Of a stretch of DNA of 38,298 nt, positions 4,026-38,298 are shown one piece after another. Numbering within the stretch: position 1 is the stretch's first letter; every line of letters starts with the position of its first letter. This DNA comes from a virus. The stretch spans positions 1 through 38,298 of the IMG/VR virus record IMGVR_UViG_3300040801_000896, one strand, 5' to 3'. The notes beneath the pieces are model-generated. The model saw only the letters and a list, made by a program, of their open reading frames with translations, was not told the DNA's origin and made no database searches. Both the position numbers and the translations under genes were made by a program.

Positions 4026-4109
4026 TTGCGCCAAAAGGCAAATCCTAACCGGGAAAGTGTGTAAAACGTTGTAAGTCAACAACAACCTTTTTGCTGCGAA
4101 AAAACCTTT

Positions 4110-6002
4110 TTGATGCAAAACAACCTTCAAGACTTGGCAATCCGGCGGCAGGTCCTCCTTGAACGGCTCAAGTCCGGGCAAGTGGAGAACTTCAAGAAAG
4201 CCTTCCGGGAACTGGAAGCCTTGACCAAACAAGCGTTTGCCGGGCTTTCGGGCCCCCTCTTGGACCTCAAGAAACGGGAGACCGCCCGGTTTTTGGCCGA
4301 ACTTGAAACAGACATCCGGAAAGCCTTGACCGGGCAAACGGACCTTTACATCCGGGACCTTGAAGAGGTTGCCGGGATTTACGCCACAACGGAAGCGGCG
4401 GACCTTGTGAAGGTGACTTCCGGACCCATCAAGTTGAAGGTTCCCAAGAAAGCCGCCTTGATGCGTAATGCCCTCACCCGCCCCATGGGCCATTCCGGGG
4501 AACTTCTCAAGGAATTTGTGGGGCAGATTGCCGGGAAGGAGTCTTCCCGGGTTGTCAATACCATCCGCAAGGGAGTAACCCAAGGGAGGACCAACCAAGA
4601 ATTAATTCGGTCTGTCATTGGGACCAAGGCAAGGAACTTCCGGGATGGAGTCCTTGCAACCTCCCGGAGAAATGCAGATGCAGTTGTCCGGACGGCAACC
4701 CAACACGTTGCCAGTTCCGCCCGGCAAGACCTTTGGGAAGCCAACCCGGAGACGGTCCAAGGTTATCAATGGGTTTCCACCTTGGACCGGAAGACAACCA
4801 ACCTTTGCAAGAGCCTTGACGGACGGAAGTTCAAGGTTGGGGAGGGCCCCACCCCTCCAATCCATATCCGTTGCCGGTCAACTACCATTGCCACCCTTGA
4901 CCCCAAGTTTGACTTTCTCCAAGAGGGCCGAACCCGTTCGGCGGAATTTGGGCCAACCAAGGGAGATGAAAATTACTTTGATTGGCTCAAGCGGCAACCC
5001 CCGGAGTTTCAGGACCAAGCCTTGGGCAAAGCCCGGGCAAAGCTCTTCCGGGACGGGGGCTTGTCCCCGGATGAGTTCTCCCGGCTTCAACTGGACAAGA
5101 ACTTCCGCCCCCTCACCCTTGAGGAAATGCGGCAACTTGAACCGGAGGTCTTCAAGAAGGCTTTCCCACCCAAACCCAAGGTCATTGAAACCCCCCCAAG
5201 GGACTTTGCCAAGATCACAAAGGAAATTGCTTCCTCCCCGGAATGGGACAAAGCCTTAAAAGCCCGGGAAGAAGCAGACCACCTCTTCAAGATTGCTTAT
5301 CCGGGAAGCTCCGGGACCGGGACGGACCTTGACCGGGCTCTTTGGATGGCGTCCAACAAAACGGCCAACCAATTGAGGCGGGAAGCCCTTGAAGGGGTTC
5401 ACAAACGGGTTGAGTTGCCCAAGGTAAGGCAGGGGGACCCGTCAAAGGTGGTTGTCCCCGGGGTCCTTAATGCCCCAAAAAATGTAAACCGGCAACGTTT
5501 GGGATACATGGACACAACCGCAACGGAAGCTTCGGAGTTTGTCTCCCGGGTTGTGGACAAGGATTACCTTCCCCAAGGAATCCGGATGCAATACAAGCCC
5601 GAACGGAACCACTATTGGAAAGGGGAAGTTTTCGTCAACATTGACACTTCAACCCGGGTCATGGCCCATGAAATCATCCATGATATTGAGTTCAAACACT
5701 CCGGGGTTGCCGCCAAGACAAGGGCATTTTTGAATAAAAGAGCGGGGGGCCAACCCACCAAAAAGCTTTCCAAATTGACCGGGGACAAGGGTTACAAACC
5801 CCATGAAATTGCCTTTGAAGATGAATGGGCCAAGCGGGGCGGCTCCCACTATATGGGCAAAGATTATTCCCAATGGTATGAAGCAACCGAACTTCTCACC
5901 ATGGGGGTTGAGCGGTTGATGTTTGACCCGGTGAGTTTTGCCCGGCAGGACCCGGAATATTTTGAATTTCTCTTGGAGGTTTTCCAGACTCCGGGGCTTT
6001 AG
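4110..6002 (+). CDS. Head morphogenesis protein (Mu F / SPP1 gp7-like) fused to a C-terminal HExxH zincin-like domain
   Basis: The MuF hallmark segment GYQWVSTLDRKTTNLCKSLDGRKF...PPIHIRCRSTT is present (the family pattern is D-x-R-T-C-x-x-C ... H-x-x-C-R-C). About 300 further residues follow and contain MAHEIIHDIEF (HExxH, nt 5667-5681). Confidence 0.85.
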   Translation: MMQNNLQDLAIRRQVLLERLKSGQVENFKKAFRELEALTKQAFAGLSGPLLDLKKRETARFLAELETDIRKALTGQTDLYIRDLEEVAGIYATTEAADLVKVTSGPIKLKVPKKAALMRNALTRPMGHSGELLKEFVGQIAGKESSRVVNTIRKGVTQGRTNQELIRSVIGTKARNFRDGVLATSRRNADAVVRTATQHVASSARQDLWEANPETVQGYQWVSTLDRKTTNLCKSLDGRKFKVGEGPTPPIHIRCRSTTIATLDPKFDFLQEGRTRSAEFGPTKGDENYFDWLKRQPPEFQDQALGKARAKLFRDGGLSPDEFSRLQLDKNFRPLTLEEMRQLEPEVFKKAFPPKPKVIETPPRDFAKITKEIASSPEWDKALKAREEADHLFKIAYPGSSGTGTDLDRALWMASNKTANQLRREALEGVHKRVELPKVRQGDPSKVVVPGVLNAPKNVNRQRLGYMDTTATEASEFVSRVVDKDYLPQGIRMQYKPERNHYWKGEVFVNIDTSTRVMAHEIIHDIEFKHSGVAAKTRAFLNKRAGGQPTKKLSKLTGDKGYKPHEIAFEDEWAKRGGSHYMGKDYSQWYEATELLTMGVERLMFDPVSFARQDPEYFEFLLEVFQTPGL

Positions 6003-6244
6003 TAAACCCGCCCCGGGACGGATTCAAAATCCGGCTCCGGACCAACCACTTTACCCCCAAGCTTCCGGGCAACGGCTTGGGCCCGGTGCCATGGGGTGGG
6101 GTAATAATCAACCGGAATGGTTTCATCCGCTTCCGTGATTTTCAGCAAAGCTTCTTTGGGCCCGGACAGGATGGACCAAGAGCCCCCCTCAAGGGAGGCG
6201 GTAACTTCATTCCCGGCGGGGAACAGATATTTGATTTTTTCCAT
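5999..6244 (-). CDS. Hypothetical 81 aa protein, opposite-strand moron
   Basis: ATG at 6244 (MEKIKYLFPAGNEV...). Its stop overlaps the MuF stop codon (5999-6002). No family recognised. Confidence 0.55.
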   Translation of the reverse strand: MEKIKYLFPAGNEVTASLEGGSWSILSGPKEALLKITEADETIPVDYYPTPWHRAQAVARKLGGKVVGPEPDFESVPGRVY

Positions 6245-6452
6245 GATATTTGAAACCTAATGAGGTCAATTGAAGAAGTAAACGGTTGTCAATGGAGTGG
6301 GGCCCCCCGGGGTTGAAGACAGATTTGCCCCCAATCCCCAAGGTAAAGCAAGCCGCCTTGATGGAAGCCCGGTCCGCAAGAGTTGACCCATGGAGGGCAA
6401 CCCATGAAGAGGGGGAACCCCCTTGCCATATTGTGAAGAAAGATTTTTCCAT
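6207..6452 (-). CDS. Hypothetical 81 aa ORF directly downstream of promoter-like module A (coding status uncertain)
   Basis: The ATG at 6452 lies 5 nt after the conserved module, the same geometry as at 9751 and 34295. It overlaps the next ORF by 38 nt. A competing plus-strand ORF (6286-6582) exists in this stop-poor sequence. Confidence 0.35.
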   Translation of the reverse strand: MEKSFFTIWQGGSPSSWVALHGSTLADRASIKAACFTLGIGGKSVFNPGGPHSIDNRLLLQLTSLGFKYHGKNQISVPRRE

Positions 6453-6486
6453 ACCTCAACAAAAACCGTTTTTCGGTTTAGGTCAA
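6453..6486 (-). promoter_or_regulatory. Promoter/operator-like module A: TTGACC-17 nt-TTTGTT-5 nt-ATG
   Basis: Minus-strand reading is TTGACC TAAACCGAAAAACGGTT TTTGTT GAGGT ATG. It is near-identical to the modules at 9752-9786 and 34296-34331. Confidence 0.6.
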
Positions 6487-6578
6487 CCCCTAAAACAGAA
6501 AACGGTTGAAATTTTCCACCCCCACCCATTTGATGGGACTTTCTTAACGGGCGGCGGTGCCGTCCCAACCCAAAAAAT

Positions 6579-8496: not shown

Positions 8497-8523
8497 AGGA
8501 AACAGTTTCCGGTTTTATTCTTG

Positions 8524-8555
8524 CCCCTGTCCATCCATTTGGACAGGGGTTTTTT
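8524..8555 (+). terminator. Rho-independent terminator after the capsid gene
   Basis: cccctgtcc (8524-8532), loop atccattt, ggacagggg (8541-8549), then T6 (8550-8555). Confidence 0.8.
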
Positions 8556-8870: not shown

Positions 8871-9368
8871 ATGTCCTTGACCATTGAAGACGGAACCGGG
8901 GTTGCCAATGCGGATTCATTTGCCACCGTTGCGGAAGCCCAAGCCTTTGCCACCGCCCGGGGGTTGACCCTCCCGGCGGACGATGCGGACGTTGAACCCC
9001 TCTTGGTCAAGGCGGCGGATTACCTTTTGGGGCTTGAAGATCAGTTCCGGGGGACCCGCACAAAGGAAGCTCAAAGGCTCCCGTTCCCCCGGTATGACGT
9101 TTGGAAGCCCGGGGGTTGGGTCTATGACTCCGATGAAATCCCGGACCTTCTCAAGCAAGCCCAAATCCGTCTTGCGGTCGATGCTTACACGGTGGATTTG
9201 CAACCAACCGGGACCGGGCAAGAGGTCCTCCGGGAAAAGGTTGGACCCATTGAAACCCAATACGCCCAACGGGGAACCGCCACCATTACCCCCGAATTCA
9301 ATGCGGCAATGTCCCTCCTTGCCCCCCTCTTGAAACCCGCCGGGCTCATTCCAGTTTTCCGGGCCTAA
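8871..9368 (+). CDS. Head-tail connector / adaptor protein
   Basis: 165 aa. The N-terminus MSLTIEDGTGVANADSFATVAEAQAFATARGLTLP...LLVKAADYL is typical of the gp6/DnaT-like adaptor proteins found at this position. Confidence 0.65.
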   Translation: MSLTIEDGTGVANADSFATVAEAQAFATARGLTLPADDADVEPLLVKAADYLLGLEDQFRGTRTKEAQRLPFPRYDVWKPGGWVYDSDEIPDLLKQAQIRLAVDAYTVDLQPTGTGQEVLREKVGPIETQYAQRGTATITPEFNAAMSLLAPLLKPAGLIPVFRA

Positions 9369-9385: not shown

Positions 9386-9430
9386 AAAAAAAACCCCGCC
9401 GGTCTTGGGGTAGTTCCGGCGGGGGTTTTA
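9386..9430. terminator. Bidirectional intrinsic terminator
   Basis: A8 (9386-9393), ccccgccgg (9394-9402), 13-nt loop, ccggcgggg (9416-9424), then gTTTT. An A-tract on one side and a T-tract on the other allow termination on both strands. Confidence 0.8.
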
Positions 9431-9433
9431 TGC

Positions 9434-9751
9434 TCAAATGATTTCCGGGTTTTCAGGGAAGACCACCGGGAGCCGTTCCAACTTGTGGGGGCGGACTTCA
9501 ACAGTGTCCCGGGGGCTTGCCCAGACTTTCTTTTGTAAAACCCGGGTATGGTTGGCAACCGGAAGTTGGACGGTAAGCAAGACCGAATCCGGGGCGGGGC
9601 GGTTTGCAAAATGATGCTCTGTTGACTTGTCCCGCCCATGGACGGCAACAATCTTGGCGGGGAAGGATTGCCCATCCAAAAGGAAGCAATCCAATTCGTC
9701 CTTATGGAAGACAACATGGAGGAGGGAAACGGTATAGTGTTTTTTGAACAT
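9434..9751 (-). CDS. Hypothetical 105 aa protein, opposite-strand moron
   Basis: ATG at 9751 (MFKKHYTVSLLHVVFHKDELD...). It is preceded by promoter-like module B and followed by the bidirectional terminator. No family recognised. Confidence 0.65.
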   Translation of the reverse strand: MFKKHYTVSLLHVVFHKDELDCFLLDGQSFPAKIVAVHGRDKSTEHHFANRPAPDSVLLTVQLPVANHTRVLQKKVWASPRDTVEVRPHKLERLPVVFPENPEII

Positions 9752-9786
9752 GACTTAAACAAAAACCGTTTTTCGTTTCCGGTCAA
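9752..9786 (-). promoter_or_regulatory. Promoter/operator-like module B: TTGACC-17 nt-TTTGTT-6 nt-ATG
   Basis: Minus-strand reading is TTGACC GGAAACGAAAAACGGTT TTTGTT TAAGTC ATG. Confidence 0.6.
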
Positions 9787-9830
9787 CACCTTTCTTGCCT
9801 TTCCATGAAAAAAGATTTCTTCTCCCTCAA

Positions 9831-12057: not shown

Positions 12058-12088
12058 ACCCGGGGGTTGACAGTTCCCCCGGGTTTTT
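12058..12088 (+). terminator. Rho-independent terminator after the major tail gene
   Basis: acccggggg (12058-12066), loop ttgacagtt, cccccgggt (12076-12084), with a T-run to 12088. Confidence 0.75.
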
Positions 12089-12100
12089 CTTGCCCGGACA

Positions 12101-12547: not shown

Positions 12548-12861
12548 AATTTGAACTCTCCTTGCCTATCCCCGGAAGTTTGGCCCCGGAGATTACCCAC
12601 CTAAAAAAGGTTTGGGAGCAAACTGGGAAGAAGCCTCAAAAACTCGCAGAACAACCCCCTTGCCCCATTGGGCTTGGTTACCTTTGGGAGTGGTTTGCGG
12701 AGATTCACAACGCAGGGGGTAAGTTCACATATTCGGAAATTAAAGCTTGGGCGGACCTGACCCAAACCAAGCCCACCCCCCAAGAAGTCAATTTGCTTGT
12801 GAAACTGCATAACATATTTCAAGAATTAGTGAGTGGAAGACGTAACAAAGCTAGTCCTTGA
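12101..12861 (+). CDS. Tail assembly chaperone, frameshifted long form (gpGT analogue)
   Basis: Joining 12101-12508 to the -1 frame gives a continuous ORF ending at 12861. Its end overlaps the GTG start of the tape measure gene. Confidence 0.7.
12502..12508 (+). other. -1 programmed frameshift slippery heptamer T_TTT_TTC
   Basis: In the zero frame the sequence reads gcg gtT TTT TTC agg. The -1 frame is open from here to 12861 (FQEWAGQLEAFARVEFELSLPIPGS...). Confidence 0.75.
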
Positions 12862-15124
12862 AGTAGAAAGTGGTCAGGTTTCCCAAGCAGAACGGAGGCT
12901 TGGGGGGCTTGGGCGGACGGCAACAAAGACAGAGAAGGCAACCGGGGGGCTCACTAAGGCATTTATGCGTATGGCGGGGCCCCTTTTGGCCCTTGCTTCT
13001 GCCGGGGCAGCTTTACGCAAGTTAGTTGGGGTAACCCGGGAATTTGACATCCTCAATGCCCAATTGGTCACCGCTACCGGTTCAGCGGAAGGGGCGGCGG
13101 ATGCATTTGTTGCCATCCAAGACTTTGCCACCAACACCCCATACGACCTAGCGCAAGTCACTACTGCTTTTGGGAAGCTAGTCAACCTCGGTTTGACCCC
13201 CTCAGAGAGGGCTTTGACCTCTTACGGGGACACTGCTTCCGCAATGGGGCGGGACCTTAACCAGATGATTGAAGCGGTTGCGGATGCAGCAACCGGGGAG
13301 TTTGAAAGGCTCAAGGAATTTGGGGTCAAAGCCAAATCTCAAGGGGATGATGTGTCCTTTACCTTCCGGGGGGTCACTACTACCGTTAAAAAGGAAGCTG
13401 GGGAGATTGAAGAATATTTGGTTGCCCTTGGGGAGAACAACTTTGCCGGGGCAATGACGGAGAGGATGGACACCCTTGACGGGGCCCTCTCCAACCTTGG
13501 AGACGAATGGGACAAGCTTTGGTTGAACATTTCAAATACCGGGTCTGGGGACATCATTGAAGGGGCAGTCCGGGGGGCAATTGATGCCATTGGGGAACTA
13601 AATGACCTTTTAGCTTCCGGGCAGTTGCAAGCCTACCTTGAGGCGATTGCCAGCAAATTTGACGGGTGGGTTGATGCCGCCCATGACGCAACGGATGCAA
13701 TTTCCACCCTCTTTGAAATGGTTTTCCCCCAATGGGCGGAATCCGGTTCCGGGGCAGTGGGGGAAATTGTCAAGGGGTTCACTACCCTTCCGGAGGACAT
13801 TGAGGCGGTAATGGGTCTTGCCGGGGTTGAGATTTGGGCCCTTGTGGATGCCACCACCACCACCGGCAAAGCAATATATGACACCTTTGTTGCCTCCTTT
13901 GATGCGGTTCTTGATTATATCGAAGGCAAAACGGCAATCATTGGGGAATTCATTTCCCGGGTGGGGTCAAAAGATTGGTGGTTGAAACCACTTGGGGAGG
14001 CTTGGGACTTCTCAGACTTAGACACCCCAGACCTTGAAGAGACTTTTGGGAAAATTGTTGCCGCCTCCGGAAGTGCAACTGACAAGATCAAAGCCCAAGC
14101 CAAAATCCGGGAGGAATCCCGGGTTGAGGTCATCCATGGGATTCTTCAAGAGAGAAATGCCGCGGTTGATTCCTTTGAAACTCAGATTGAAAAAGCGGAT
14201 GAACTCCGGGCAGCGTATGAAGCTTTGAAAGCCGCCCGGGCGGCGGAGGAAGGGGACCGCCTTGCTGCCTTCAAATTTGACCCGGGGGGAGAAGAGGGGC
14301 CCACCGGACCGAGTAAGGAGGACATCAAAGCTTCAAGTGCCTTTGAAAAACTCCGCCAATCCTTGCTTTCTGAGGAAGAGGAAATTGAAGAGAGTTACCA
14401 ACGGCGGAAGCAAACCATTTTGGATTCCACCCTGACAACGGAAGAGGAAAAACTTGCGGTTATGGAACGGTTGAACCGGGACCACCAAGAGCAAATCCGG
14501 GAGTTTGAGCTTTCCCGTTGGAAGGATTCTCTTTCCTCCTTCGATGACTTCCAAAACAACCTTCTTGTCTTGGCCCGGACCGGGAACAAGGACCTTGCAA
14601 ACGTCTTCAAGGCGGCGGCAATTGCCAACACAATTATTAAGACTTACGAATCCGCAACGTCTGCTTATGCTTCCCTTGCCTCCATCCCCTATGTTGGCCC
14701 GGCTCTTGGGGCGGCGGCGGCGGCGGCGGCAATTGCGGCGGGGATTGCCAACGTTCAAGCCATCCGGGCCCAACCAATCGGGCAATATGCCCAAGGGGGC
14801 ATTTTGGGCGGTTCCTCCCCCACCGGGGACCAACTGACCTTCCAAGGCAACTCAGGGGAAGTGATTTTGAACTTTGCCCAACAGAAAGAGCTTTTGGACA
14901 TCGCTTCCGGACGGAAGGAGGGCGGCGGGGGTTCTTCCCCAATGGTCAAGATTTACAATTTGCCCGGGCAAACGGCGGAAACCCGGACGGATGAATCCGG
15001 CAATTTGGAAGTGACCATCAAACAAGCGGAGAACTTCATTGCGGGGCGGATTGCTTCGGGGGTTGGTCCGGTCACCCGGGCCCTTGAAGGGGCTTACCCC
15101 TTGAGAAGGGGGGTTGCTTCCTAA
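12833..15124 (+). CDS. Tail tape measure protein
   Basis: 763 aa, the largest alpha-helical ORF after the chaperone pair. It has the conserved N-terminal segment FATNTPYDLAQVTTAFGKLVNLGLTP and a Gly/Ala-rich hydrophobic stretch (GPALGAAAAAAAIAAGIANV). Confidence 0.9.
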   Translation: MEDVTKLVLEVESGQVSQAERRLGGLGRTATKTEKATGGLTKAFMRMAGPLLALASAGAALRKLVGVTREFDILNAQLVTATGSAEGAADAFVAIQDFATNTPYDLAQVTTAFGKLVNLGLTPSERALTSYGDTASAMGRDLNQMIEAVADAATGEFERLKEFGVKAKSQGDDVSFTFRGVTTTVKKEAGEIEEYLVALGENNFAGAMTERMDTLDGALSNLGDEWDKLWLNISNTGSGDIIEGAVRGAIDAIGELNDLLASGQLQAYLEAIASKFDGWVDAAHDATDAISTLFEMVFPQWAESGSGAVGEIVKGFTTLPEDIEAVMGLAGVEIWALVDATTTTGKAIYDTFVASFDAVLDYIEGKTAIIGEFISRVGSKDWWLKPLGEAWDFSDLDTPDLEETFGKIVAASGSATDKIKAQAKIREESRVEVIHGILQERNAAVDSFETQIEKADELRAAYEALKAARAAEEGDRLAAFKFDPGGEEGPTGPSKEDIKASSAFEKLRQSLLSEEEEIEESYQRRKQTILDSTLTTEEEKLAVMERLNRDHQEQIREFELSRWKDSLSSFDDFQNNLLVLARTGNKDLANVFKAAAIANTIIKTYESATSAYASLASIPYVGPALGAAAAAAAIAAGIANVQAIRAQPIGQYAQGGILGGSSPTGDQLTFQGNSGEVILNFAQQKELLDIASGRKEGGGGSSPMVKIYNLPGQTAETRTDESGNLEVTIKQAENFIAGRIASGVGPVTRALEGAYPLRRGVAS

Positions 15125-15483
15125 TGGTTGCTTGGCCCTCTGTATTCCCCAATCCTGACGTTGGGGTTTCATATGAGATTGATTCCCGGGTTGATGTCCT
15201 GAAAATGGATTCCGGGGAGTTCCGGCAACGTCCCGTCCGGCAGTCCCGGCGATATGTCTTCCCGGTCACCTTCACTTTTTCAGACCTAACTTTGGCTATG
15301 TTCAACGCTTGGTTTGCCTATAAAATTGAATCCGGGGCAACTTGGTTTGACCTTGAATTGCCGGTCAACGGTGGAGGAACAGAAACCCGGTCCGTTCGGT
15401 TCTTTGAACCAAGTTACCAAATCACCCTTTCCATCCCCCCTTCTGTCTGGACTGTAACCGCCCAACTTGAAACCTTGACCTGA
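15124..15483 (+). CDS. Small distal tail protein, paralogue 1
   Basis: 119 aa. TAATG overlap with the tape measure stop. It shares a WP..P.P ... R.R ... F.V.F.F ... F.L.LP ... W.V.A.L pattern with the next ORF. Confidence 0.7.
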   Translation: MVAWPSVFPNPDVGVSYEIDSRVDVLKMDSGEFRQRPVRQSRRYVFPVTFTFSDLTLAMFNAWFAYKIESGATWFDLELPVNGGGTETRSVRFFEPSYQITLSIPPSVWTVTAQLETLT

Positions 15484-15962
15484 TGGCTTCCATCGACTGG
15501 CCAGCAACCATCCCCCTTCCCTCAACCAACTTCTCCGCCTTGGTTGAAGGGCCCTCCATCTTTGGGCGGGGGCCCCGGACAAAGAACTTGGCCCGGAAGC
15601 GGACCCGGCGGACGGTCTTTTCCTTCCCCGTCCGTTGGGTTTTCCTCGATTTGGAGTTCCAAACCTTCGCAACCTTTTTCAAGACCACCCTTTCAGATGG
15701 GGTTTTGCCTTTCAATCTTCCCCTTGCGGGGGTGGGGGATGGACTTGTTGATGTTGAAGTCTTCTTCTCCGGGGCGGAGTATAACGCAACCCCCGGGGGT
15801 GGTTTGGTTTGGGATGTTTCGGCAACCCTGACATCCCACAAGCCCCCCATTTGGGATGAACGGGCCCTTGACCGCTACTTTTTTGATTGGCGTGCCCTTG
15901 TTCTCTCAGGGGGTGAAAATGCATTGCTTGAAGATGCTTCCCCTGTTCTTCTGAAATCTTAA
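15483..15962 (+). CDS. Small distal tail protein, paralogue 2
   Basis: 159 aa. TGATG overlap with the previous ORF. Same sequence pattern as 15124-15483. Confidence 0.7.
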   Translation: MASIDWPATIPLPSTNFSALVEGPSIFGRGPRTKNLARKRTRRTVFSFPVRWVFLDLEFQTFATFFKTTLSDGVLPFNLPLAGVGDGLVDVEVFFSGAEYNATPGGGLVWDVSATLTSHKPPIWDERALDRYFFDWRALVLSGGENALLEDASPVLLKS

Positions 15963-15974
15963 CTATTAAATGCC

Positions 15975-17663
15975 ATGGCGGACCCCGAAATTTCAGTTTC
16001 AAATCCTTTTTATTCTGCCTACTCCGGGACGGACCTTGAATATGCTTTAGGGATGGCTCCCATTCTTGCGGCAAGGAAAGCCGATAAGGACGGTAGTAAC
16101 CTTGATGTTGGGAGCATCTCACTTGTCAGCCTTGCTACGGATGTGATTGCGGCAATCGGCGGGGGTAATGACCCTGCCAATTTCCTTGGGAACGTGTCCG
16201 CCCTTTCTGATGACCTTGAAGACCCTGCAACTAGTTCGGGCAAGTGGTATTTTGTTGAGGGGGTTAGCGGAACTATGACCGGAACAAACCCACCTTCTAG
16301 CAGTGTGGAGGATGGTGGATACATCTACAGCAATGGTGCGGCATGGCTTGTGAGGGCTGCAAGTCCTTCTGTTTTAGCAGATGGGCAGATTGCAAAGGCC
16401 AAACTTTCAACCGCCCTTCAAGGTGGTGCTTCTGAGGTTGACGACAGTTACACCGGGGCTTGGAAGCTTATGGATAAAAGCGGACGGCTTTTGTTGGAAG
16501 TGGATTCCACCGGGAAAGTTCAATGTGACCTTGATTTCTCCTCCGTGGATGCCATGGAGGAGGGGAACGAAAGTGAATTTGTAATTGAGGATCTATCCGG
16601 GAAAGTGCTCCTTAAATTTGACGCAACGGGGGCTTTAGTTTGGCCCTTGTTAGCCACCCCTTCGGATGTCTCTGCCGCAATTGCGGCAAACGTAAGCCTT
16701 TCAAACTTAGATTCTTCAAAAATTGATTTGGCAACAATCAACGCGACAATTGGTGCCACCCCGATTGATTTTTCAACTACGGCAGTTGGTGATTCCGGAG
16801 CAACCAGTGTTTTGACTGATACAGGTTTTACCCACCCTTCAGTTCTCCATATCCCCGGGGGTTGGAATGGTGCCAAATATTGGTGCGCGTTGACCCCATA
16901 CCCGGGCACAGATGCACAATACGAAAACCCCACCATTTACACATCTGCCGATGGAATCACATGGGCGGAACCTTCGGGGATTTCAAACCCAATCGTTTCT
17001 TCCCCCTCTGGATCCGATTACAACTCTGACACCGAACTTGTGCTTGGCCCCGATGGTTGGCTTTATTGTTTTTATCGGGCTTCCGAAGGTGGGCAACGTC
17101 GATTCAAATATGTCAAATCCCGGGACGGGATTAATTGGTCAACACCGGCAACCCTAATTGCATATTCAATCGGTGTGGCAGACCTACTATCCCCCTCATT
17201 GGTCTATGACAATGGTTGGCATATGTTTGCAGTCAACATGTTGGCCCCAACGGCAACGGGTGAGTATTATACAAACTATGCCATTGAACGCTATTATTCT
17301 CCCGATTTGGTGACATGGAGTACCCCGGAAATTGTCTCTGTATCCGGACGCCCTTGGGGAACATCACAAGAGCCTTGGCATTTGGCTATCCGTAAGGTTG
17401 GGGCGGCTTGGTTGATGCTCCTTTGCACTTGCAATAATGGCACTAGTGGGAGTTCGGGGCAACTTTTCTTTGGTAAATCCGGGAGCGGGTGGAGTTGGAA
17501 TTTTCAAGATTCAGCATATGGGGGACTATCTAGTGCATATCGCTCTTGTTTCAACGTCACTAGTATCAACAATGACAGTTTGGGTCTCTCCATTCTACGT
17601 GCATCGACCGCTAGTGGATGGCAGATTTTTCAAGATACCGCTACTTTTAACCTCAGTGAATAA
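15975..17663 (+). CDS. Tail fibre / receptor-binding protein with a beta-propeller-like (Asp-box-like) C-terminal region
   Basis: 562 aa. Three motifs resemble BNR/Asp-box repeats: SADGITW, SRDGINW and SPDLVTW. The nucleotide composition differs from the rest of the genome. Confidence 0.6.
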   Translation: MADPEISVSNPFYSAYSGTDLEYALGMAPILAARKADKDGSNLDVGSISLVSLATDVIAAIGGGNDPANFLGNVSALSDDLEDPATSSGKWYFVEGVSGTMTGTNPPSSSVEDGGYIYSNGAAWLVRAASPSVLADGQIAKAKLSTALQGGASEVDDSYTGAWKLMDKSGRLLLEVDSTGKVQCDLDFSSVDAMEEGNESEFVIEDLSGKVLLKFDATGALVWPLLATPSDVSAAIAANVSLSNLDSSKIDLATINATIGATPIDFSTTAVGDSGATSVLTDTGFTHPSVLHIPGGWNGAKYWCALTPYPGTDAQYENPTIYTSADGITWAEPSGISNPIVSSPSGSDYNSDTELVLGPDGWLYCFYRASEGGQRRFKYVKSRDGINWSTPATLIAYSIGVADLLSPSLVYDNGWHMFAVNMLAPTATGEYYTNYAIERYYSPDLVTWSTPEIVSVSGRPWGTSQEPWHLAIRKVGAAWLMLLCTCNNGTSGSSGQLFFGKSGSGWSWNFQDSAYGGLSSAYRSCFNVTSINNDSLGLSILRASTASGWQIFQDTATFNLSE

Positions 17664-17668
17664 AACAA

Positions 17669-18592
17669 ATGGGAATTATCTTACGGCTTCCAAACAATGT
17701 TTCTGACCCAACCGACCGGCTGCCAGTCAACACCCCCCTAGGTCTTACTAGCGCCCAAGTTGGTAACTATTACTATGACATGAAAGAGGCAGGCTATGAC
17801 CTTGACTTAACACAATTTAATGCCCTAACGGCGTTTTGGGCCGCGATTAAAGCGGCGGGTGAGGAAGATAACCTGATTGAAGTTTACCCATTCATTGGGA
17901 CAACCTTTGCCCAAGCTTGCATCAAGTTTAAGGGGGGTGTTGCGGACCAAGCGTTGGTTGCTGTAAATGGGACGGACCTGACCGATTTTGAAGTTTCTTC
18001 CGGTGAAATTCTTGGGTTTGATGACCGGACGTATGCCGGGTCTTCAAGCCGGATGCTTGACCCGGGTGTTACCGGTTCGGACCTTTCATCCGGAATTGGT
18101 GTCCTAGCATACATTGATACCTCAACCATGACCTTTGGTTTGACAGGCAGCGCAAATGACCGGGTTTTAGCTGGCGCGTCCCTTGATGCAACAGCTAGCC
18201 GTCAACTCATCATTGGCTATCGCTATAATGATGACCTTGGCAATGGATATTCCCGTTACAGTTACCGGTATACTGCCGCCACAACATTCCACCAACTGTC
18301 AAACCCCAATGTCTCCGGTGTCTTTCACTCGTTTGCAACCCCTGACCCGGAAAATGCTGAAACGTGGATTGATGGGAGTTTGGAGGGTGGGCCAAGCGCC
18401 TATACTGAGGACACAACATCCTTGGCCCGACCAATTTATATTATGGGCAAATCCCCCTTTAGTGGGTCAGTGAATACCGGGTTTAATGGCAAATGTAGAT
18501 TTTTGGCCCTTACAAATGGTCAGGAAACCCAAGGGGCGGCGATTGCTACGGCACTTACTACCCTTATGGCTGCCCTTGGAAGAACCTTTTAA
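17669..18592 (+). CDS. Second fibre-associated protein (possibly lectin-like beta-sandwich)
   Basis: 307 aa with clean ORF boundaries and the same atypical composition as the preceding gene. No motif recognised. Confidence 0.55.
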   Translation: MGIILRLPNNVSDPTDRLPVNTPLGLTSAQVGNYYYDMKEAGYDLDLTQFNALTAFWAAIKAAGEEDNLIEVYPFIGTTFAQACIKFKGGVADQALVAVNGTDLTDFEVSSGEILGFDDRTYAGSSSRMLDPGVTGSDLSSGIGVLAYIDTSTMTFGLTGSANDRVLAGASLDATASRQLIIGYRYNDDLGNGYSRYSYRYTAATTFHQLSNPNVSGVFHSFATPDPENAETWIDGSLEGGPSAYTEDTTSLARPIYIMGKSPFSGSVNTGFNGKCRFLALTNGQETQGAAIATALTTLMAALGRTF

Positions 18593-20324: not shown

Positions 20325-20737
20325 AGCCGGGGGAATGGGTTTTGCCCGTCTTGAACAAGCCTTGGAAGCTTGGCGGACGGGGCCCGGAAGAGTTTGATTG
20401 CTTCGGGCTCTTGCTTTGGGTCAAGCGGGTTTACTTCGGGGAGGACATCCCGGACTTCCAAAGCCCCGGCAAGGTGGATATTCGGGCCTTTGTGCGGCTT
20501 TTTGAGGACGGGCGGGGCCAAGGATGGGAAAAGGTCGAAAAGCCCCTTGAGGGGTCCGCCGTTGCCCTTGGGAAGCGCAACCGGATTCACCATTGCGGGA
20601 TCTTCACAACGGCGGACCGGGGCTTGGTAGTCCATGCTTCTGATGGGGCAAGGGTAAGGGCCCAAAACCTCCGCCAATTGAGGGTTGAAGGTTGGGGGTT
20701 GATTGAGTTTTATTCCTTCAAGTCACCATGCCCTTGA
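20321..20737 (+). CDS. NlpC/P60-family peptidase, tail-tip associated (lambda gpK-like)
   Basis: Catalytic-type motifs FDCFGLLLWV (Cys), HHCGIF and VVHAS (His). 138 aa, upstream of the J-like gene. Confidence 0.8.
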   Translation: MKPGEWVLPVLNKPWKLGGRGPEEFDCFGLLLWVKRVYFGEDIPDFQSPGKVDIRAFVRLFEDGRGQGWEKVEKPLEGSAVALGKRNRIHHCGIFTTADRGLVVHASDGARVRAQNLRQLRVEGWGLIEFYSFKSPCP

Positions 20738-23337
20738 TCCACTTTATCCCCAATTCTTTCAAGCCGGAAGAGAAGGAACTTTGCCAAGCCCCGGAGGGGT
20801 CAACCCTCTTTGATTGGGTCAGGGCCCGGTTCCCGGAGGATGGGGAATTCCCATTACCAACAATCTGTCTTTTGAATGGGGCCCCAGTCCTCCGGGGTGA
20901 ATGGGACAAGCCTTTGAAAGACGGGGATTCCGCCGTCTTTTTCTCTAGTCCGGGGTATGAAGCCGCTTGGGTTGTGATTATCCTTCTTGTTGCGGCTCTT
21001 GCTGCCGCTGTTCTTTTGATGCCCGTTCCCACTGCCCCGGGGAGCATTGGGGACCCTGACCCGGTTTACAGTCTGACCGGGCAACGGAACCAAAACCGCC
21101 TTAACTCGGAAATTGAAGTCCCTTACGGGTTGAACCGCCTTTGGCCCTCCAAAGCCGCCCCGGAATATACCAAGTTCATCAACAATGAACAAGAAATTTA
21201 CATCCTCCTTTGCTTGGGCCAAGGGTATTACGACACCGCCGGGGCAACGGTCCAAATTGAGGATACAGAGATTTCCAACTTCGATGACATCACCCATGAA
21301 TTTTATTCCCCGGGGGATGATGTAACCCTTTTCCCGGACAACGTGGAAATCTCTGGAGAGGTTGGGAATATTGAACTTTTTGGGCCCAATGAACCGGAAT
21401 ATGATTCTTGGGTTGGTCCATATGCGGCAAACGCTTCCGGAACAGACACAACCAAACTTGAACTTGATTTGGTCTTTCCGGCGGGGCTTTACTTTGCGGG
21501 GGACTCCGGGGACCTTACCGCCAAGACCGTTACCGTTTCCATTGAATACCGGGAGATTGATGATACCGGGGCCCCTGTTGGGGTGGGAACTTATACCGCC
21601 GTTGCCTTTTCCAAGACGCTTGCCACCAACACCCCCCAGCGGTTCACAACCTCAATTGCCGTTGCTTCCGCCCGGTATGAAGTTCAGGTCCGGCGGACAA
21701 ACAACACCGAAACAGACACAAGCAAGACCCACCGGACCCAAGAGGCAATCCATTGGGTTGCCCTCCGGGCTTTCCTCCCTTCGACCAAGGACTATGGGGA
21801 TGTAACCCTCTTGGCAATCCGGGCCCGGGCTTCAAACAATCTCAACAATAGCAGTTCAAACCGGGTCAATGTAATTACAACCCGGAAACTCCCCATTTGG
21901 GATTCGGGGACGGAAACTTGGTCCGCCCCAACGGTTACCCGTTCCTTGGTTTGGGCTTTCTGCGATGCCCTCCGGGCGGAATATGGGGGGCGGCTTCCGG
22001 ACACTTACTTGGACCTTGCGACATTGGACGCTTTGAATACGGACCTTGAAGCCGCCGGGGAGAACTTTGACTTCGTTTTTGACAAAGCAATGTCTCTTTG
22101 GACCATGTTGACCACCATTGCCCGGGCGGGGAATTGCCTTCCGATTGTTTCCGGCTCTCAAATCTCCATGACCATTGACGAGGTCAAGACAGTCCCAACC
22201 GCCCTTTTTTCCAAAGAGAATATGGTTGAGGGGTCTTTTTCCAAAGACTTCAAACTTTGGACCGATGACGAATACGATGGGGTTGAGGTGGAGTTTATTG
22301 ATGGGACCACCTATGCAACGGAAACGGTCCTTTGCCTTGTGGGGGATGATGTTGGGGACAACCCCCAACAAATCAAATTGCCCGGGGTGACTGACCGGGC
22401 CCGGGCTTGGCGGGTTGGAATGAGGGTCCGGGAAGCCACCAAGCGGAGGCGGGGAGGGGTCCGGTTCTCGACCGGGCTTGAAGGTCATATCCCCAACTTC
22501 AATGATTTGATTTTTGTTTCCCATGACCTCCCCCAATGGGGACAATCCGGGCGGGTTGTCTCTATTTCCGGGACTTCAATTATCGTGGACAATGAACTTG
22601 ATTGGTCCGCCGGGGGAACCTTCAAAATTGCCTTCAGAACGCTCTTAGGGGAAGAGTTGGGACCTTTCACTGTGACAGAGGGGGCGGATGCTTTCACGGC
22701 GGAAATGGGGGCCCCCTTGAGTGCCCCAAGCCTTGCCCTCCTTGCCAGTGGGGACAATGTTGAACCGCCTATTTATGCTTTCGGGGTCGAATCAGGGTTG
22801 GGGGCTTACTGCCGGGTTGTTTCGGTCAATCATGGCGGTGGGGAGCAAGTGGACATTGAAGCTATTGAAGATGATGCAACCATTTATTCCCATGACGCTG
22901 AGAGCCCACCGGCGGCGGTAACCGGAAGCCTTCCCGCCAAGGTAGCGGACCTCCCAACGGTGACCGGGCTTTCCGTCCGGGACATCCCTTCAAGGACCCC
23001 CATTTCCCAAGCAACTTGGAACCCTGCCCTTGGGGCAACTTCTTACGTTGTCCAAGGGTCTTTCAATGGAACGGATTGGTCCGTCCTTGGGGTGACAAGC
23101 CAAAATTTCTTGAACTTCACCGTTGCCCCCGGAAATTACTATGTCCGGGTTGCCGCCATCAATGTTGGGCAAGGCCCTTGGACAACTGCTTGGTCCGGGA
23201 CTGTAGGGGACACAAGTGGGATTGATACTTCCGGGGTCCTCATCATTCCCCCCACTTCGGGGGAAGCTATGGAAGCCAACCAATTTATCATTCAAGACAA
23301 GGCTTACCTTGATTTGTTAGGGTTATATCAGCCATGA
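20728..23337 (+). CDS. Host-specificity / central tail tip protein (gpJ-like) with an N-terminal gpI-like beta-grasp segment and a C-terminal FN3-like domain
   Basis: 869 aa. The N-terminus ...ICLLNGAPVLRGEWDKPLKDGDSAVFFSSPGY plus a hydrophobic helix resembles lambda tail protein I. The C-terminus ATWNPALGATSYVVQGSFNGTDWSVLG...YYVRVAAIN is FN3-like. Confidence 0.8.
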   Translation: MPLIHFIPNSFKPEEKELCQAPEGSTLFDWVRARFPEDGEFPLPTICLLNGAPVLRGEWDKPLKDGDSAVFFSSPGYEAAWVVIILLVAALAAAVLLMPVPTAPGSIGDPDPVYSLTGQRNQNRLNSEIEVPYGLNRLWPSKAAPEYTKFINNEQEIYILLCLGQGYYDTAGATVQIEDTEISNFDDITHEFYSPGDDVTLFPDNVEISGEVGNIELFGPNEPEYDSWVGPYAANASGTDTTKLELDLVFPAGLYFAGDSGDLTAKTVTVSIEYREIDDTGAPVGVGTYTAVAFSKTLATNTPQRFTTSIAVASARYEVQVRRTNNTETDTSKTHRTQEAIHWVALRAFLPSTKDYGDVTLLAIRARASNNLNNSSSNRVNVITTRKLPIWDSGTETWSAPTVTRSLVWAFCDALRAEYGGRLPDTYLDLATLDALNTDLEAAGENFDFVFDKAMSLWTMLTTIARAGNCLPIVSGSQISMTIDEVKTVPTALFSKENMVEGSFSKDFKLWTDDEYDGVEVEFIDGTTYATETVLCLVGDDVGDNPQQIKLPGVTDRARAWRVGMRVREATKRRRGGVRFSTGLEGHIPNFNDLIFVSHDLPQWGQSGRVVSISGTSIIVDNELDWSAGGTFKIAFRTLLGEELGPFTVTEGADAFTAEMGAPLSAPSLALLASGDNVEPPIYAFGVESGLGAYCRVVSVNHGGGEQVDIEAIEDDATIYSHDAESPPAAVTGSLPAKVADLPTVTGLSVRDIPSRTPISQATWNPALGATSYVVQGSFNGTDWSVLGVTSQNFLNFTVAPGNYYVRVAAINVGQGPWTTAWSGTVGDTSGIDTSGVLIIPPTSGEAMEANQFIIQDKAYLDLLGLYQP

Positions 23338-25091: not shown

Positions 25092-25365
25092 CGCAAAGGA
25101 AGGAAATTGCCTTCTTGCCTTCCTCCAAGGAATCCACCCAAGCAACCTTTTGCCCTTGCTCTTGCAGGATTCGGAGTTCCCGCAATTGAAGGGCGGTTGG
25201 GGTCTTCCCGGGGGCTTTCAACTCCAAGAAGAGGACCCCACTATTGGGGGCAATAACAATTCTATCCGGGACCCCCCGCCGGGCGGGGGAACTGAATTTG
25301 TAATACAGGCAACCCCGGCTTTTGGCAAACCGCCCAAGCTTCTCTTCAAGCTCTTTTTCGCTCAC
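25075..25365 (-). CDS. VRR-NUC domain nuclease
   Basis: 96 aa. RGVPDRIVI...VLFLELKAPGK fits the VRR-NUC D...E-x-K signature. Adjacent to the SNF2 helicase, as in many phage replication modules. Confidence 0.8.
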   Translation of the reverse strand: MSEKELEEKLGRFAKSRGCLYYKFSSPARRGVPDRIVIAPNSGVLFLELKAPGKTPTALQLRELRILQEQGQKVAWVDSLEEGKKAISFLCDVRKV

Positions 25366-25640
25366 AACTTGGAAAGCCCCGGATGGTTGGTTTTAATTGC
25401 CCGGTTGATTTCCCGCCGTTCGCAACGCTGAACTTGGACAATCAACTTTTCCAAGATGGGCAACCGGGGTTCCGGGCTTTCAAGCTCAAGGAGAACCAAC
25501 CTCTTCAAATCATCCTTGTTGGGTTTGTTGACCTTGAGGGCCCGAACAAGTTTGTTCCACCCGTCAAGATACCCGGCGGACAAAAGCCGCTCCCGGTCCT
25601 TTTGGGGGACGGTCGGTTGAGTTGGAAAAATCTTTTTCAT
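25362..25640 (-). CDS. Hypothetical protein (ORF-track start 25700 lies inside the polymerase gene)
   Basis: MKKIFPTQPTVPQKDRERLLSAGYLDGWNKLV... No family recognised. Confidence 0.55.
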   Translation of the reverse strand: MKKIFPTQPTVPQKDRERLLSAGYLDGWNKLVRALKVNKPNKDDLKRLVLLELESPEPRLPILEKLIVQVQRCERREINRAIKTNHPGLSKL

Positions 25641-25680
25641 TGTGGGGGAGGTAAAACGGAAACCGTTTATTGTGCAAGAC

Positions 25681-31543: not shown

Positions 31544-31579
31544 TGGTTAAGGGTTCAACGTTTTAAATGTTCGGGGAGA

Positions 31580-31608
31580 ATGGAAAAGGTTTTCCGTTTC
31601 ACGGTCAA
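31580..31608 (-). promoter_or_regulatory. Diverged promoter-like element D: TTGACC-17 nt-TTCCAT
   Basis: Minus-strand reading is TTGACC GTGAAACGGAAAACCTT TTCCAT. It shares GAAACG and an A-tract/T-tract palindrome with modules A-C, and lies in the gap upstream of 31543. Confidence 0.4.
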
Positions 31609-34295: not shown

Positions 34296-34331
34296 GGTTT
34301 GAAACAAAAACCTTTTTTCGTTTCCGGTCAA
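34296..34331 (-). promoter_or_regulatory. Promoter/operator-like module C: TTGACC-17 nt-TTTGTT-7 nt-ATG
   Basis: Minus-strand reading is TTGACC GGAAACGAAAAAAGGTT TTTGTT TCAAACC ATG. Confidence 0.6.
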
Positions 34332-34357
34332 GTCCTCTTTTTCAAAAAGTTTCTTTT

Positions 34358-34555
34358 TCAGAAACCAAGAGCCCGGCGGGTCCTCAACTTCTTTTGCAAC
34401 CGGGCTTCCGCTTGGAACCCCCACTTGAAAGAAGATTGCTTCTCCCTGTCCGCCCAAGGGCATTGGGACAGGGTTTTACCCTCCCGGTAATACCTCCGCC
34501 CCAAGCGTTCACACTCCCGGGCAACCCGGTCTTCTTCTTTGGTTTTGAATCTCAT
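34358..34555 (-). CDS. Rmf/CrpP-like small protein, 65 aa
   Basis: RLGRRYYREGKTLSQCPWADREKQSSFKWGFQAEA resembles the G-Y-x-x-G...C-P-Y/W...W-x-x-G-W/F core of ribosome modulation factor / CrpP-fold proteins. Confidence 0.45.
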   Translation of the reverse strand: MRFKTKEEDRVARECERLGRRYYREGKTLSQCPWADREKQSSFKWGFQAEARLQKKLRTRRALGF

Positions 34556-37666: not shown

Positions 37667-37702
37667 TGGGGGGAGGATTCAAAAGGGGCAGGATTTGGTC
37701 AA
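37667..37702 (-). promoter_or_regulatory. Putative leftward early promoter: TTGACC-17 nt-AATCCT-7 nt-ATG
   Basis: Minus-strand reading is TTGACC AAATCCTGCCCCTTTTG AATCCT CCCCCCA ATG (HNH start). Confidence 0.45.
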
Positions 37703-38181: not shown

Positions 38182-38298
38182 AAAATTCCGGGGTTGCAAA
38201 AGCAAGGGGAAAACCTTGGAGTTTCCCAAGATGGTTTTGAATGAAAGGCAATTGAAGTATTGCAAACTCCGGGCCCTTGGTGACTCGGACGGTAACAC
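38182..38298. repeat. Terminal direct repeat, copy 2 (identical to 1-117)
   Basis: Same 117 nt as the window start. Confidence 0.95.

Follow-up and report, generated by a model that had tools for sequence, protein, structure and literature searches.

We analyzed a 38,298-nucleotide (nt) stretch of viral DNA (IMG/VR record IMGVR_UViG_3300040801_000896, positions 1 to 38,298; hereafter the window) in which a short promoter-like module recurs ahead of minus-strand genes, and we consider it probable that this module is a clade-specific early promoter/operator cassette of the replication-gene strand that gives rise to leaderless mRNAs. The module reads TTGACC-N17-TTTGTT (29 nt) in three exact copies, all on the minus strand, with an ATG 5, 6, and 7 nt downstream, and it is accompanied by two diverged copies in the window and by further copies in related genomes. 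Its strict strand bias, together with the genes it serves, points to the early-strand promoter class of this clade. The copies and the elements next to them are:

6458-6486, minus strand: core of module A, with TTGACC at 6486-6481, a 17-nt spacer holding a dyad, and TTTGTT at 6463-6458 (nhmmer E = 1.7e-7)
9758-9786, minus strand: core of module B, with the -35 element at 9786-9781 and the hexamer at 9763-9758 (nhmmer E = 3.2e-7)
34303-34331, minus strand: core of module C, with the -35 element at 34331-34326 and the hexamer at 34308-34303 (nhmmer E = 3.6e-6)
31578-31608, minus strand: module D, a diverged fourth copy, TTGACCGTGAAACGGAAAACCTTTTCCATTC (nhmmer E = 1.4e-6, profile of 18 copies)
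25649-25677, minus strand: module E, a degenerate fifth copy, TTGCAC-AATAAACGGTTTCCGTT-TTACCT with an N17 spacer, 8 nt before the ATG at 25640
6452, 9751, and 34295, minus strand: ATGs after modules A, B, and C, the A of each being the predicted transcription start
6487-6510, minus strand: T/A-rich, UP-element-like tract upstream of the -35 element of module A
37667-37702, minus strand: site ahead of the first early operon (HNH-primase), an AT-rich tract and TTGACC-N17-AATCCT-N7-ATG (37666)

The exact copies form the top direct-repeat family of the genome. The degenerate pattern TTGACCNNAAMCGAAAAAMGGTTTTTGTT matched these three sites with 0 mismatches and no additional site even when three mismatches were allowed, while the matches to the module pattern expected from 100 dinucleotide-preserving shuffles came to 0.00. 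The exact half-site GTTTTTGTT is likewise found only at modules A, B, and C. Module D is separated by a leader of about 40 nt from the ATG (31534) of a conserved 149-amino acid (aa) gene, and modules stand at the equivalent position in the relatives L136, L139, L140, and L141. Module E, which we spotted by eye and which is absent from the nhmmer profile matches, occupies a 40-nt gap behind the stop codon of the DNA polymerase gene and ahead of a conserved 92-aa gene, for which good modules are present in L136 (15458), L139 (15334), L140 (9967), and L141 (~15450). T/A-rich tracts equivalent to that of module A precede B (9787-9810), C (34332-34355), and the copies in the relatives. Because the copies cease to resemble one another at the ATG and grow less alike upstream of the -35 element, the repeat unit is a promoter-sized span and not a duplicated gene. 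The site ahead of the HNH-primase operon is promoter-like, with the geometry of the leaderless modules, but it has no dyad; the same is true in L081, L084, L136, and L138.

An earlier note on this DNA, made from the letters alone, had quoted the three exact copies with their TTGACC, 17-nt spacer, and shared hexamer, and had pointed out their promoter-like geometry, with the ATG standing where a transcription start would be expected; both observations held. Its remark that the second hexamer is a poor match to TATAAT was also borne out, TTTGTT having no A at position 2. The note had further described an A5-N(2-3)-T5 palindrome within the spacer. The dyad symmetry is real, but it is larger than that, extending over about 22-24 bp and covering the hexamer as well as the spacer.

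An alignment of 18 copies gave the consensus ..T/A-rich..gggc TTGACc n2-4 (t)AAAC g AAAAAC GTTTT. tg TTta n ATG, with the strongest conservation in TTGAC, AAAC, the A-tract ending in C, and GTTTT. The -35 element is TTGACC (five of six positions shared with TTGACA) in A, B, C, and D and TTGCAC in E, and module E is the only one of the ~27 copies across the clade in which TTGAC is not retained. The spacer measures 17 nt in the window and 17-18 nt in the relatives. The second hexamer is far less uniform. It is TTTGTT in A, B, and C, TTCCAT in D, and TTACCT in E, with T at position 6, and the forms seen across the clade include TTTGTT, TGTGTT, TATGTT, TTATTT, TCCGTT, TTCTTT, and TTCAGT, with TATTAT in the more distant L142. 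Its constant feature is T-richness, as befits the right half of the dyad. Some orthologous copies do combine an A in second place with a T in sixth place (TATGTT at L136 12565 and TATTAT in L142), and the occurrence of A-containing and variable hexamers at orthologous sites argues for a degenerate -10 element of the sigma-70 type.

The dyad is imperfect, with the left half (T)AAAC-g-AAAAAC and the right half GTTTTT-t-GTTT(A), and its center lies about 20 nt upstream of the ATG, so that it overlaps the core promoter elements. Among 24 copies, the best 9-nt arms paired at a mean of 7.1 of 9 positions (5.5 +/- 0.84 in shuffles), and arms with at least 8 of 9 pairs occurred in nine copies as against 1.3% of shuffles. 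In L081, whose halves are TAAACGAAAAAC and GTTTTTTGTTTA, 11 of 12 positions per arm match their own reverse complement, and the profile hidden Markov model (HMM) also matches the reverse strand of the same module sites. Dyad variants are genome-specific and shared within a genome: CGG in the window, CGT/TGT in L081, and in L084 the variant TAAATG...GTTTTGTGTT, which is present twice. The dyad is far more constrained than polymerase contacts would need, and we read it as an operator, most likely one bound by a protein.

As a hairpin the dyad is weak. The stem consists entirely of A-T and G-T pairs, and its folding energy ranges from -4 to -6.7 kcal/mol for DNA and, with flanks included, from -8.7 to -10.6 kcal/mol for RNA. 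As RNA it is no more stable than shuffled sequences (z -0.4 to -0.9); as DNA, z was -0.8 to -1.8 for three of the four sequences folded and -3.5 for copy A. No U-tract was found 3' of the stem, and the module had no match in Rfam. We thus rejected a terminator or RNA-structure reading of the module, as the folds do not rise above shuffles and belong to no Rfam family.

A few other intergenic sites in the relatives carry dyads with no -35 element. TTGAC-less dyads (e.g. AACAAAAACCGTTTTGTT) lie at L084 9175-9192 and L137 9181-9197, at the junction of the MuF and scaffold genes, and at L138 2288-2310, between the terminase genes; they may be what is left of lost cassettes, or else operator sites that stand alone. 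On the late strand of the window, a terminator hairpin between the tail-tube and tail-assembly-chaperone genes (12062-12100, plus strand) has TTGACA in its loop and an ATG 34 nt on. The equivalent late-strand site in L084 (14550), L137 (14499), and L081 (14353), also on the plus strand, reads TTGACT-GAAAAACGTTTTTC-...-ATG, which is the module dyad moved 6 nt toward the -35 element. This junction site may be a late-strand variant of the module. A second late-strand site, at 4066-4112 (plus strand) just before the MuF start, has paired CCTTTTTG repeats around GCGAAAAAAC (AACCTTTTTGCTGCGAAAAAACCTTTTTGATG), an A/T-tract dyad partly like the module half-sites.

Capsid homologues number in the hundreds. 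Through homologues of the capsid and DUF2800 proteins we arrived at eight related genomes, which measure 36.8-40.3 kb, come from unrelated metagenomes, and show identities of 56-62% for the capsid and 46-52% for DUF2800. All of them carry the module. The genomes with copies, eight when the window is counted, are the window, L081+L140, L084, L133, L136+L137, L138, L139, and L141 (L084 being half a genome), and they have ~27 copies, every one of them on the replication-gene strand: five in L081+L140, two in L084, five in L136+L137, three in L139, four in L141, one or two in L138, and one in L133. Profile searches found no module in L142 (41% DUF2800 identity) or in 80 more distant portal relatives, and the equivalent promoters of L142 look more canonical (TTGACG-N18-TATAAA and TTGACT...TATTAT). 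A scan with the exact pattern gave no match in IMG/VR and one relative among metagenome contigs. Copies are near-identical within a genome and different between genomes, and the genes behind them vary by genome, with orphan genes, a cluster of SEC-C-motif genes, the DNA polymerase gene (L139), and the 92-aa gene (five genomes) among them.

The earlier note had asked whether relatives keep the module next to an ATG; in the eight genomes it is always on the early strand and mostly adjoins one. Its proposal of a small co-regulated set of three units was not upheld. The window has at least five copies, some of which precede conserved genes of the replication arm (those of 149 aa and 92 aa), and the modules of the relatives precede the genes for DNA polymerase, ParB, and others, as would a general early-strand promoter of the clade. 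That the note had found no room for a ribosome-binding leader was correct as to the near-absence of a leader, but this is nothing special to the module, as an SD-like 4-mer is rare throughout the genome (see below).

This conservation effectively refutes the idea that the repeat arose by chance or is selfish and plays no part in regulation, or that it is an intrinsic terminator. The sequence is A/T-rich and of low complexity, and an unrelated repeat family also fits the loose pattern: 47 loci in GTDB genomes match it, 33 of which are one intergenic repeat in a single metagenome-assembled genome (MAG), the others being scattered single matches, mostly in AT-rich genomes. None of the 47 is a prophage relative (tblastx). 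Against this idea stand the expectation of 0 matches by shuffling, the weak stem with no U-tract behind it, and the conservation of position, strand, and ATG distance in eight genomes. The MAG in question (CAYVAZ01, 'uncultured bacterium SRP141376_co3_289'; L086-L131) has a repeat of ~90 nt, ..ctgatgttacgcaatccatgaTTGACGATTGCTTGAAAAATGGTTTTTGTTgtgagccaactattc.., mostly at contig ends; it is present in high copy, has no protein similarity to the phage, and shares the TTGAC-N-GAAAAANGGTTTTTGTT layout by coincidence.

The distance between module and start codon bears on whether the module acts on transcription or translation. In about two-thirds of the copies an ATG follows the hexamer by 5-8 nt (chance ~5% for a 3-position window), and in these near-ATG copies the offset from TTGAC to ATG is 34-37 nt, all starts are ATG, and no SD-like 4-mer lies upstream. 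Eight or nine copies in six genomes instead have leaders of roughly 40-60 nt, before the 149-aa gene (the window, L136, L139, L140, and L141), before ParB (L138), and in L133. The long-leader copies show that the module is independent of the start codon and argue that it acts on transcription rather than translation. An RNA-level, start-associated element of the kind called the start-associated sequence (SAS) and its extended form (ESAS), acting on translation initiation without being a promoter, would explain why most copies end 5-8 nt before an ATG. We regard it as very unlikely in view of these distant copies, of the position of the best-conserved part (TTGAC) 34-38 nt upstream of the ATG, of the lack of a Shine-Dalgarno (SD) or other rRNA-complementary core, and of the absence of significant RNA structure or an Rfam match.

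Within the genome as a whole, an SD-like 4-mer (GGAG, GAGG, or AGGA) was found within 17 nt before the start in only 4 of 39 genes, which indicates that the host does not rely on SD pairing; the sequences upstream of the highly expressed capsid (7321) and tube (11079) genes are A-rich and G-poor. An A of the ATG 6-8 nt past the hexamer is compatible with a transcription start at that position. In most copies, the transcript thus probably starts at the A of the ATG and is leaderless, to judge from this geometry.

The scheme that we infer for the module is as follows. Host RNA polymerase with a sigma-70-family factor would be recruited mainly through the AT-rich tract and the near-consensus -35 element (cTTGACC), with a T-rich, degenerate -10-like hexamer (TTTGTT here) 17-18 nt downstream. 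Transcription would start 6-8 nt past the hexamer, in most copies at the A of the ATG, and the resulting leaderless mRNAs would be translated in a host that does not use SD sites. The dyad over the spacer and -10 element would most likely serve as the operator for a dimeric regulator, which could switch all module units together, for instance to shut off early transcription. Each module would head its own transcription unit. The modules probably serve as recombination points as well, given that they are near-identical within a genome and stand at points of cassette gain and loss.

Two small cassettes in the virion operon and one gene in the replication arm are predicted to be driven by the exact copies. 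Their genes, with the calls of the Joint Genome Institute (JGI), are:

6207-6452, minus strand: A1, an 81-aa open reading frame (ORF) starting 5 nt past module A; not called by JGI
5999-6244, minus strand: A2, an 81-aa orphan ORF and second gene of cassette A; called by JGI
9434-9751, minus strand: B, a 105-aa orphan ORF and sole gene of cassette B; the JGI call has the same start
9386-9425, minus strand: intrinsic terminator of cassette B, CCCCCGCCGG...CCGGCGGGG then T8 (a U8 tail), 9 nt past the stop codon
33852-34295, minus strand: C1, a 147-aa orphan ORF if the start is the ATG at the module

Cassettes A and B are small orphan-gene units inserted antisense into the virion operon. Cassette A, with its two small ORFs, lies between the MuF and scaffold genes. 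A1 has a homologue in L081 (8683-8883, 40% identity, tblastn E = 5e-14) in a three-gene cassette at the same junction, and the start of A2 is uncertain because of its 38-nt overlap with A1. No terminator was found for cassette A. Cassette B is a 426-nt unit between the DnaT_2-like connector gene (8871-9368) and the next virion gene, and judging by its sequence it has the complete structure of a moron: promoter-like module, one ORF, and terminator. The terminator hairpin is strong (-20.7 kcal/mol, z = -3.4, with 0 of 200 shuffles as stable). No homologue of the cassette B protein was found in the relatives, and in L081, L084, and L137, which lack the cassette, little or nothing separates the connector gene from the next virion gene. 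The GC content of these genes (A1 0.496, A2 0.557, B 0.525, C1 0.523) is not deviant from that of the genome (0.535), and A1, A2, B, and C1 had no match to Pfam, PHROG, NCBIfam, or PDB sequences.

The presence or absence of such cassettes at module positions raises an explanation that shares the promoter with our preferred scheme and differs on the role of the dyad. In a mobile cassette like the promoter-early stem-loop (PeSL) elements of T4-type phages (Arbiol et al., 2010, PMC2839356; Comeau et al., 2014, PMC4122927), the dyad would be a stem-loop that attenuates incoming transcription, and the repeat would mainly provide the homology for recombination events by which orphan genes are shuffled. 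The shared layout of AT-rich tract, promoter, and dyad fits this explanation, as do copies that are near-identical within but different between genomes and the -35-less dyad remnant that L084 and L137, which have no cassette A, retain at the MuF/scaffold junction. The stem, however, is weak, made of A-T and G-T pairs only, no better than shuffles as RNA, and followed by no U-tract, whereas PeSL stems are stable G/C-rich terminators, and the genuine terminators of the window genome look quite different. We therefore judge this explanation rather unlikely.

Module C lies in a gap behind the primase gene (stop at 34564), 27 nt past the stop of an uncalled 65-aa ORF (34358-34555). The start of C1 at 34295 is putative, because the frame is open upstream and the public call uses another start.

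Several points weigh against the promoter/operator scheme that we prefer. Foremost, no TATAAT-like -10 element is present: TTTGTT has no A at -11, which factors of the sigma-70 type need, and A at position 2 is missing from the window hexamers (with module E, TTACCT, counted as an exception). Judged by what E. coli requires, the copies in the window would make very weak promoters. A scan of the window for sigma-70 promoters did not report the modules, and the genome shows no enrichment of consensus sigma-70 promoters. Second, an imperfect dyad of A/T only could reflect a structural need such as curvature or easy melting and not a binding site. Third, C1 has an in-frame ATG upstream, at 34463, and the JGI call is a 203-aa form that runs through module C; this form overlaps the 65-aa ORF in a different frame. 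Finally, our search for a regulator gave no clear candidate. No helix-turn-helix, ribbon-helix-helix, or other DNA-binding domain was found in the ORFs scanned, save in a ParB-like protein that is not universal, and the conserved 92-aa protein (25362-25640, minus strand; 48-69% identity in all relatives, with a module upstream in five genomes) shows no sign of DNA binding. Its AlphaFold model has four helices (predicted local distance difference test 92.2, predicted template modeling score 0.80), and the best match to PDB folds had E = 1.1. PDB sequence searches with this and a 103-aa protein were empty.

A scheme that relies on host polymerase alone suffers most from the absence of an A at position 2, and this absence keeps alive a factor-dependent (middle-class) promoter in which a phage activator, or a sigma-like or appropriator protein, reads the dyad instead of a -10 element. 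T4 MotA/AsiA and SPO1 gp28 are analogues of such a system, the -10 element of SPO1 gp28 being TTTNTTT. The spacer is conserved despite ~50-60% protein identity, far beyond the needs of a sigma-70 promoter, and together with the lack of enrichment of consensus promoters this speaks for a factor; the different, dyad-less promoter of the HNH-primase operon would make a two-step cascade possible. On the other hand, the ORFs scanned showed neither a sigma-like nor a MotA-like nor any other DNA-binding domain, the -35 element TTGACC is the near-perfect housekeeping one that appropriation systems normally bypass, and hexamers of orthologous relatives contain A (TATGTT, TATTAT). We consider a factor-dependent promoter unlikely. 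A related and similarly doubtful idea is that the dyad has replaced the -10 element and is read by an unrecognized small phage protein, which would either stand in for the recognition of a -10 element or act as a common gate on the early-strand units. If so, this would be a new promoter class, a housekeeping -35 element with a factor-read dyad that gives leaderless mRNAs in an SD-less host lineage, and the dyad variants peculiar to each genome would evolve in step with the protein.

The scan of ORFs, which did not extend to tail-region ORFs such as those at 12833-18592 and 20728-23337, turned up no RNA polymerase or sigma domain, nor any integrase or repressor domain. Other candidates were tried and rejected. 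The ParB-like protein is not a general binder of the dyad, as L136 and L139 have modules but no ParB. A Bacteroidetes-type promoter with a -7 box TAnnTTTG was found 14 times against 14.4 expected and never at modules. A reading of the extracytoplasmic function (ECF) type (AAC ... CGT) failed by eye, the sequence past TTTGTT being unconserved, and an extended -10 element (TGn + TTAAGT) would need a 20-nt spacer and a start inside the ORF.

The genome that carries these modules is complete. The ends of the window are identical over 117 bp (1-117 = 38182-38298), which indicates a circular or terminally redundant assembly of a complete genome with a unit length of 38,181 bp; the start of the small terminase gene (50) falls just within this overlap. 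Its genes are arranged in two arms:

Plus strand: small and large terminase, portal, MuF-like head protein, scaffold, P22-type major capsid protein, connector and tail genes, and lambda-like tail-tip genes
Minus strand, from the other end: HNH protein, PriCT/DUF5906 primase, ParB-like protein, DUF2800 nuclease, Enc34-type ssDNA-binding protein, endonuclease VII-like protein, family-A DNA polymerase, and SNF2 helicase

The phage is an uncultured, lytic-looking siphovirus. A near-identity DNA search of 50,697 phage records gave no match to the window, and the nearest cultured phages, whose hosts are various Proteobacteria, share 43-49% portal or capsid identity. No tRNA was found in the window. 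A strong intrinsic terminator (11-bp stem, T5) lies directly 3' of the major capsid gene (8523-8550, plus strand), the usual layout for capsid over-expression. In some relatives the large terminase has an intein (matches to Hint/intein-splicing families; 806 aa in L081 2889-5309 and 776 aa in L141 1786-4116), and the DNA polymerase at L140 6962-9967 has 1001 aa against the usual ~680 aa; the large terminase and DNA polymerase of the window are intein-free.

Taken together, the modules offer a regulatory map for a clade of uncultured siphoviruses (about 36-40 kb) that is known from metagenomes only, marking the predicted starts of early units, orphan add-ons that would be expressed independently, and probable exchange points. 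They predict exact 5' ends of transcripts, which are checkable against metatranscriptomes already at hand. Should host polymerase use the T-rich hexamer unaided, this would bear on promoter recognition and leaderless translation in an SD-less lineage, and if it needs a factor, the conserved dyad would be a handle for a new phage transcription regulator. With its 35-45 nt, the module might also be put to use as a compact cassette for leaderless expression in hosts of this kind.

The closest described analogue of the module, by likeness of layout, is the PeSL cassette of T4-type phages. A PeSL combines an AT-rich tract, a sigma-70-like promoter, and a stem-loop that lies mostly between the -35 and -10 elements or over the -10 element, and PeSLs adjoin ORFans upstream, with a few within replication and virion modules, and mark sites where modules are exchanged (PMC2839356; PMC4122927). 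Recombination between PeSL copies gives rise to indels and mini-circles. The module resembles them in being one of many near-identical short cassettes per genome (three near-identical and two diverged copies in the window, four or five per genome in relatives), in its AT-rich tract, sigma-70-like -35 element, and dyad between the boxes or over the -10 element, and in standing upstream of ORFans, in a few cases in the replication or virion modules, at points of gene gain and loss. It differs in that both boxes of a PeSL promoter fit the E. coli consensus, whereas the module has a T-rich, non-consensus -10 element; in that PeSL stem-loops are stable G/C-rich terminators shown to work, whereas the dyad is weak and of A/T only; and in that PeSLs carry an SD sequence, whereas the module has none and its ATG is at the predicted start site. 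PeSLs also belong to T4-type myoviruses and the module to a siphovirus of ~38 kb.

Other known systems share single features. Cassette B is like the morons of the lambdoid phages HK97 and HK022 (PMC3594210) in consisting of a promoter-like module, a single ORF, and an intrinsic terminator, set on the opposite strand between two conserved virion genes and missing from relatives, but its GC content is not deviant (0.525 against 0.535) and its promoter would be the phage's own general early promoter rather than a foreign one. The ORFs scanned gave no sign of a temperate phage, so that the usual rationale for morons, expression from a prophage, would not apply. The cI transcript of phage lambda from PRM is a leaderless phage transcript. 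There, as in the module, the ATG start codon is at the expected transcription start with no SD sequence; here this is the predicted rule for a whole promoter class, in a genome that makes no use of SD sites. Stoperators of Cluster A mycobacteriophages are asymmetric 13-bp sites bound by a known monomeric immunity repressor and are mostly not promoters (PMC9283540, PMC6550527). The module shares with them the short, phage-specific, genome-wide repeats in one orientation relative to transcription and the genome-specific variants, and one class of stoperators overlaps an early promoter; but the module is a dyad that in the window is always in a promoter frame, and it lacks the features that define stoperators. 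In Cluster K mycobacteriophages, SAS repeats are found 3-8 bp ahead of start codons, in pairs with inverted repeats (PMC3203893). The module is likewise clade-restricted, in one orientation, and a few bases before start codons, with inverted repeats, but SAS contains a core resembling SD and keeps to the start codon, whereas the module has a -35 element and is also found roughly 40-60 nt away. The arrangement is thus a new version of a known phage regulatory cassette and not a new kind of system.

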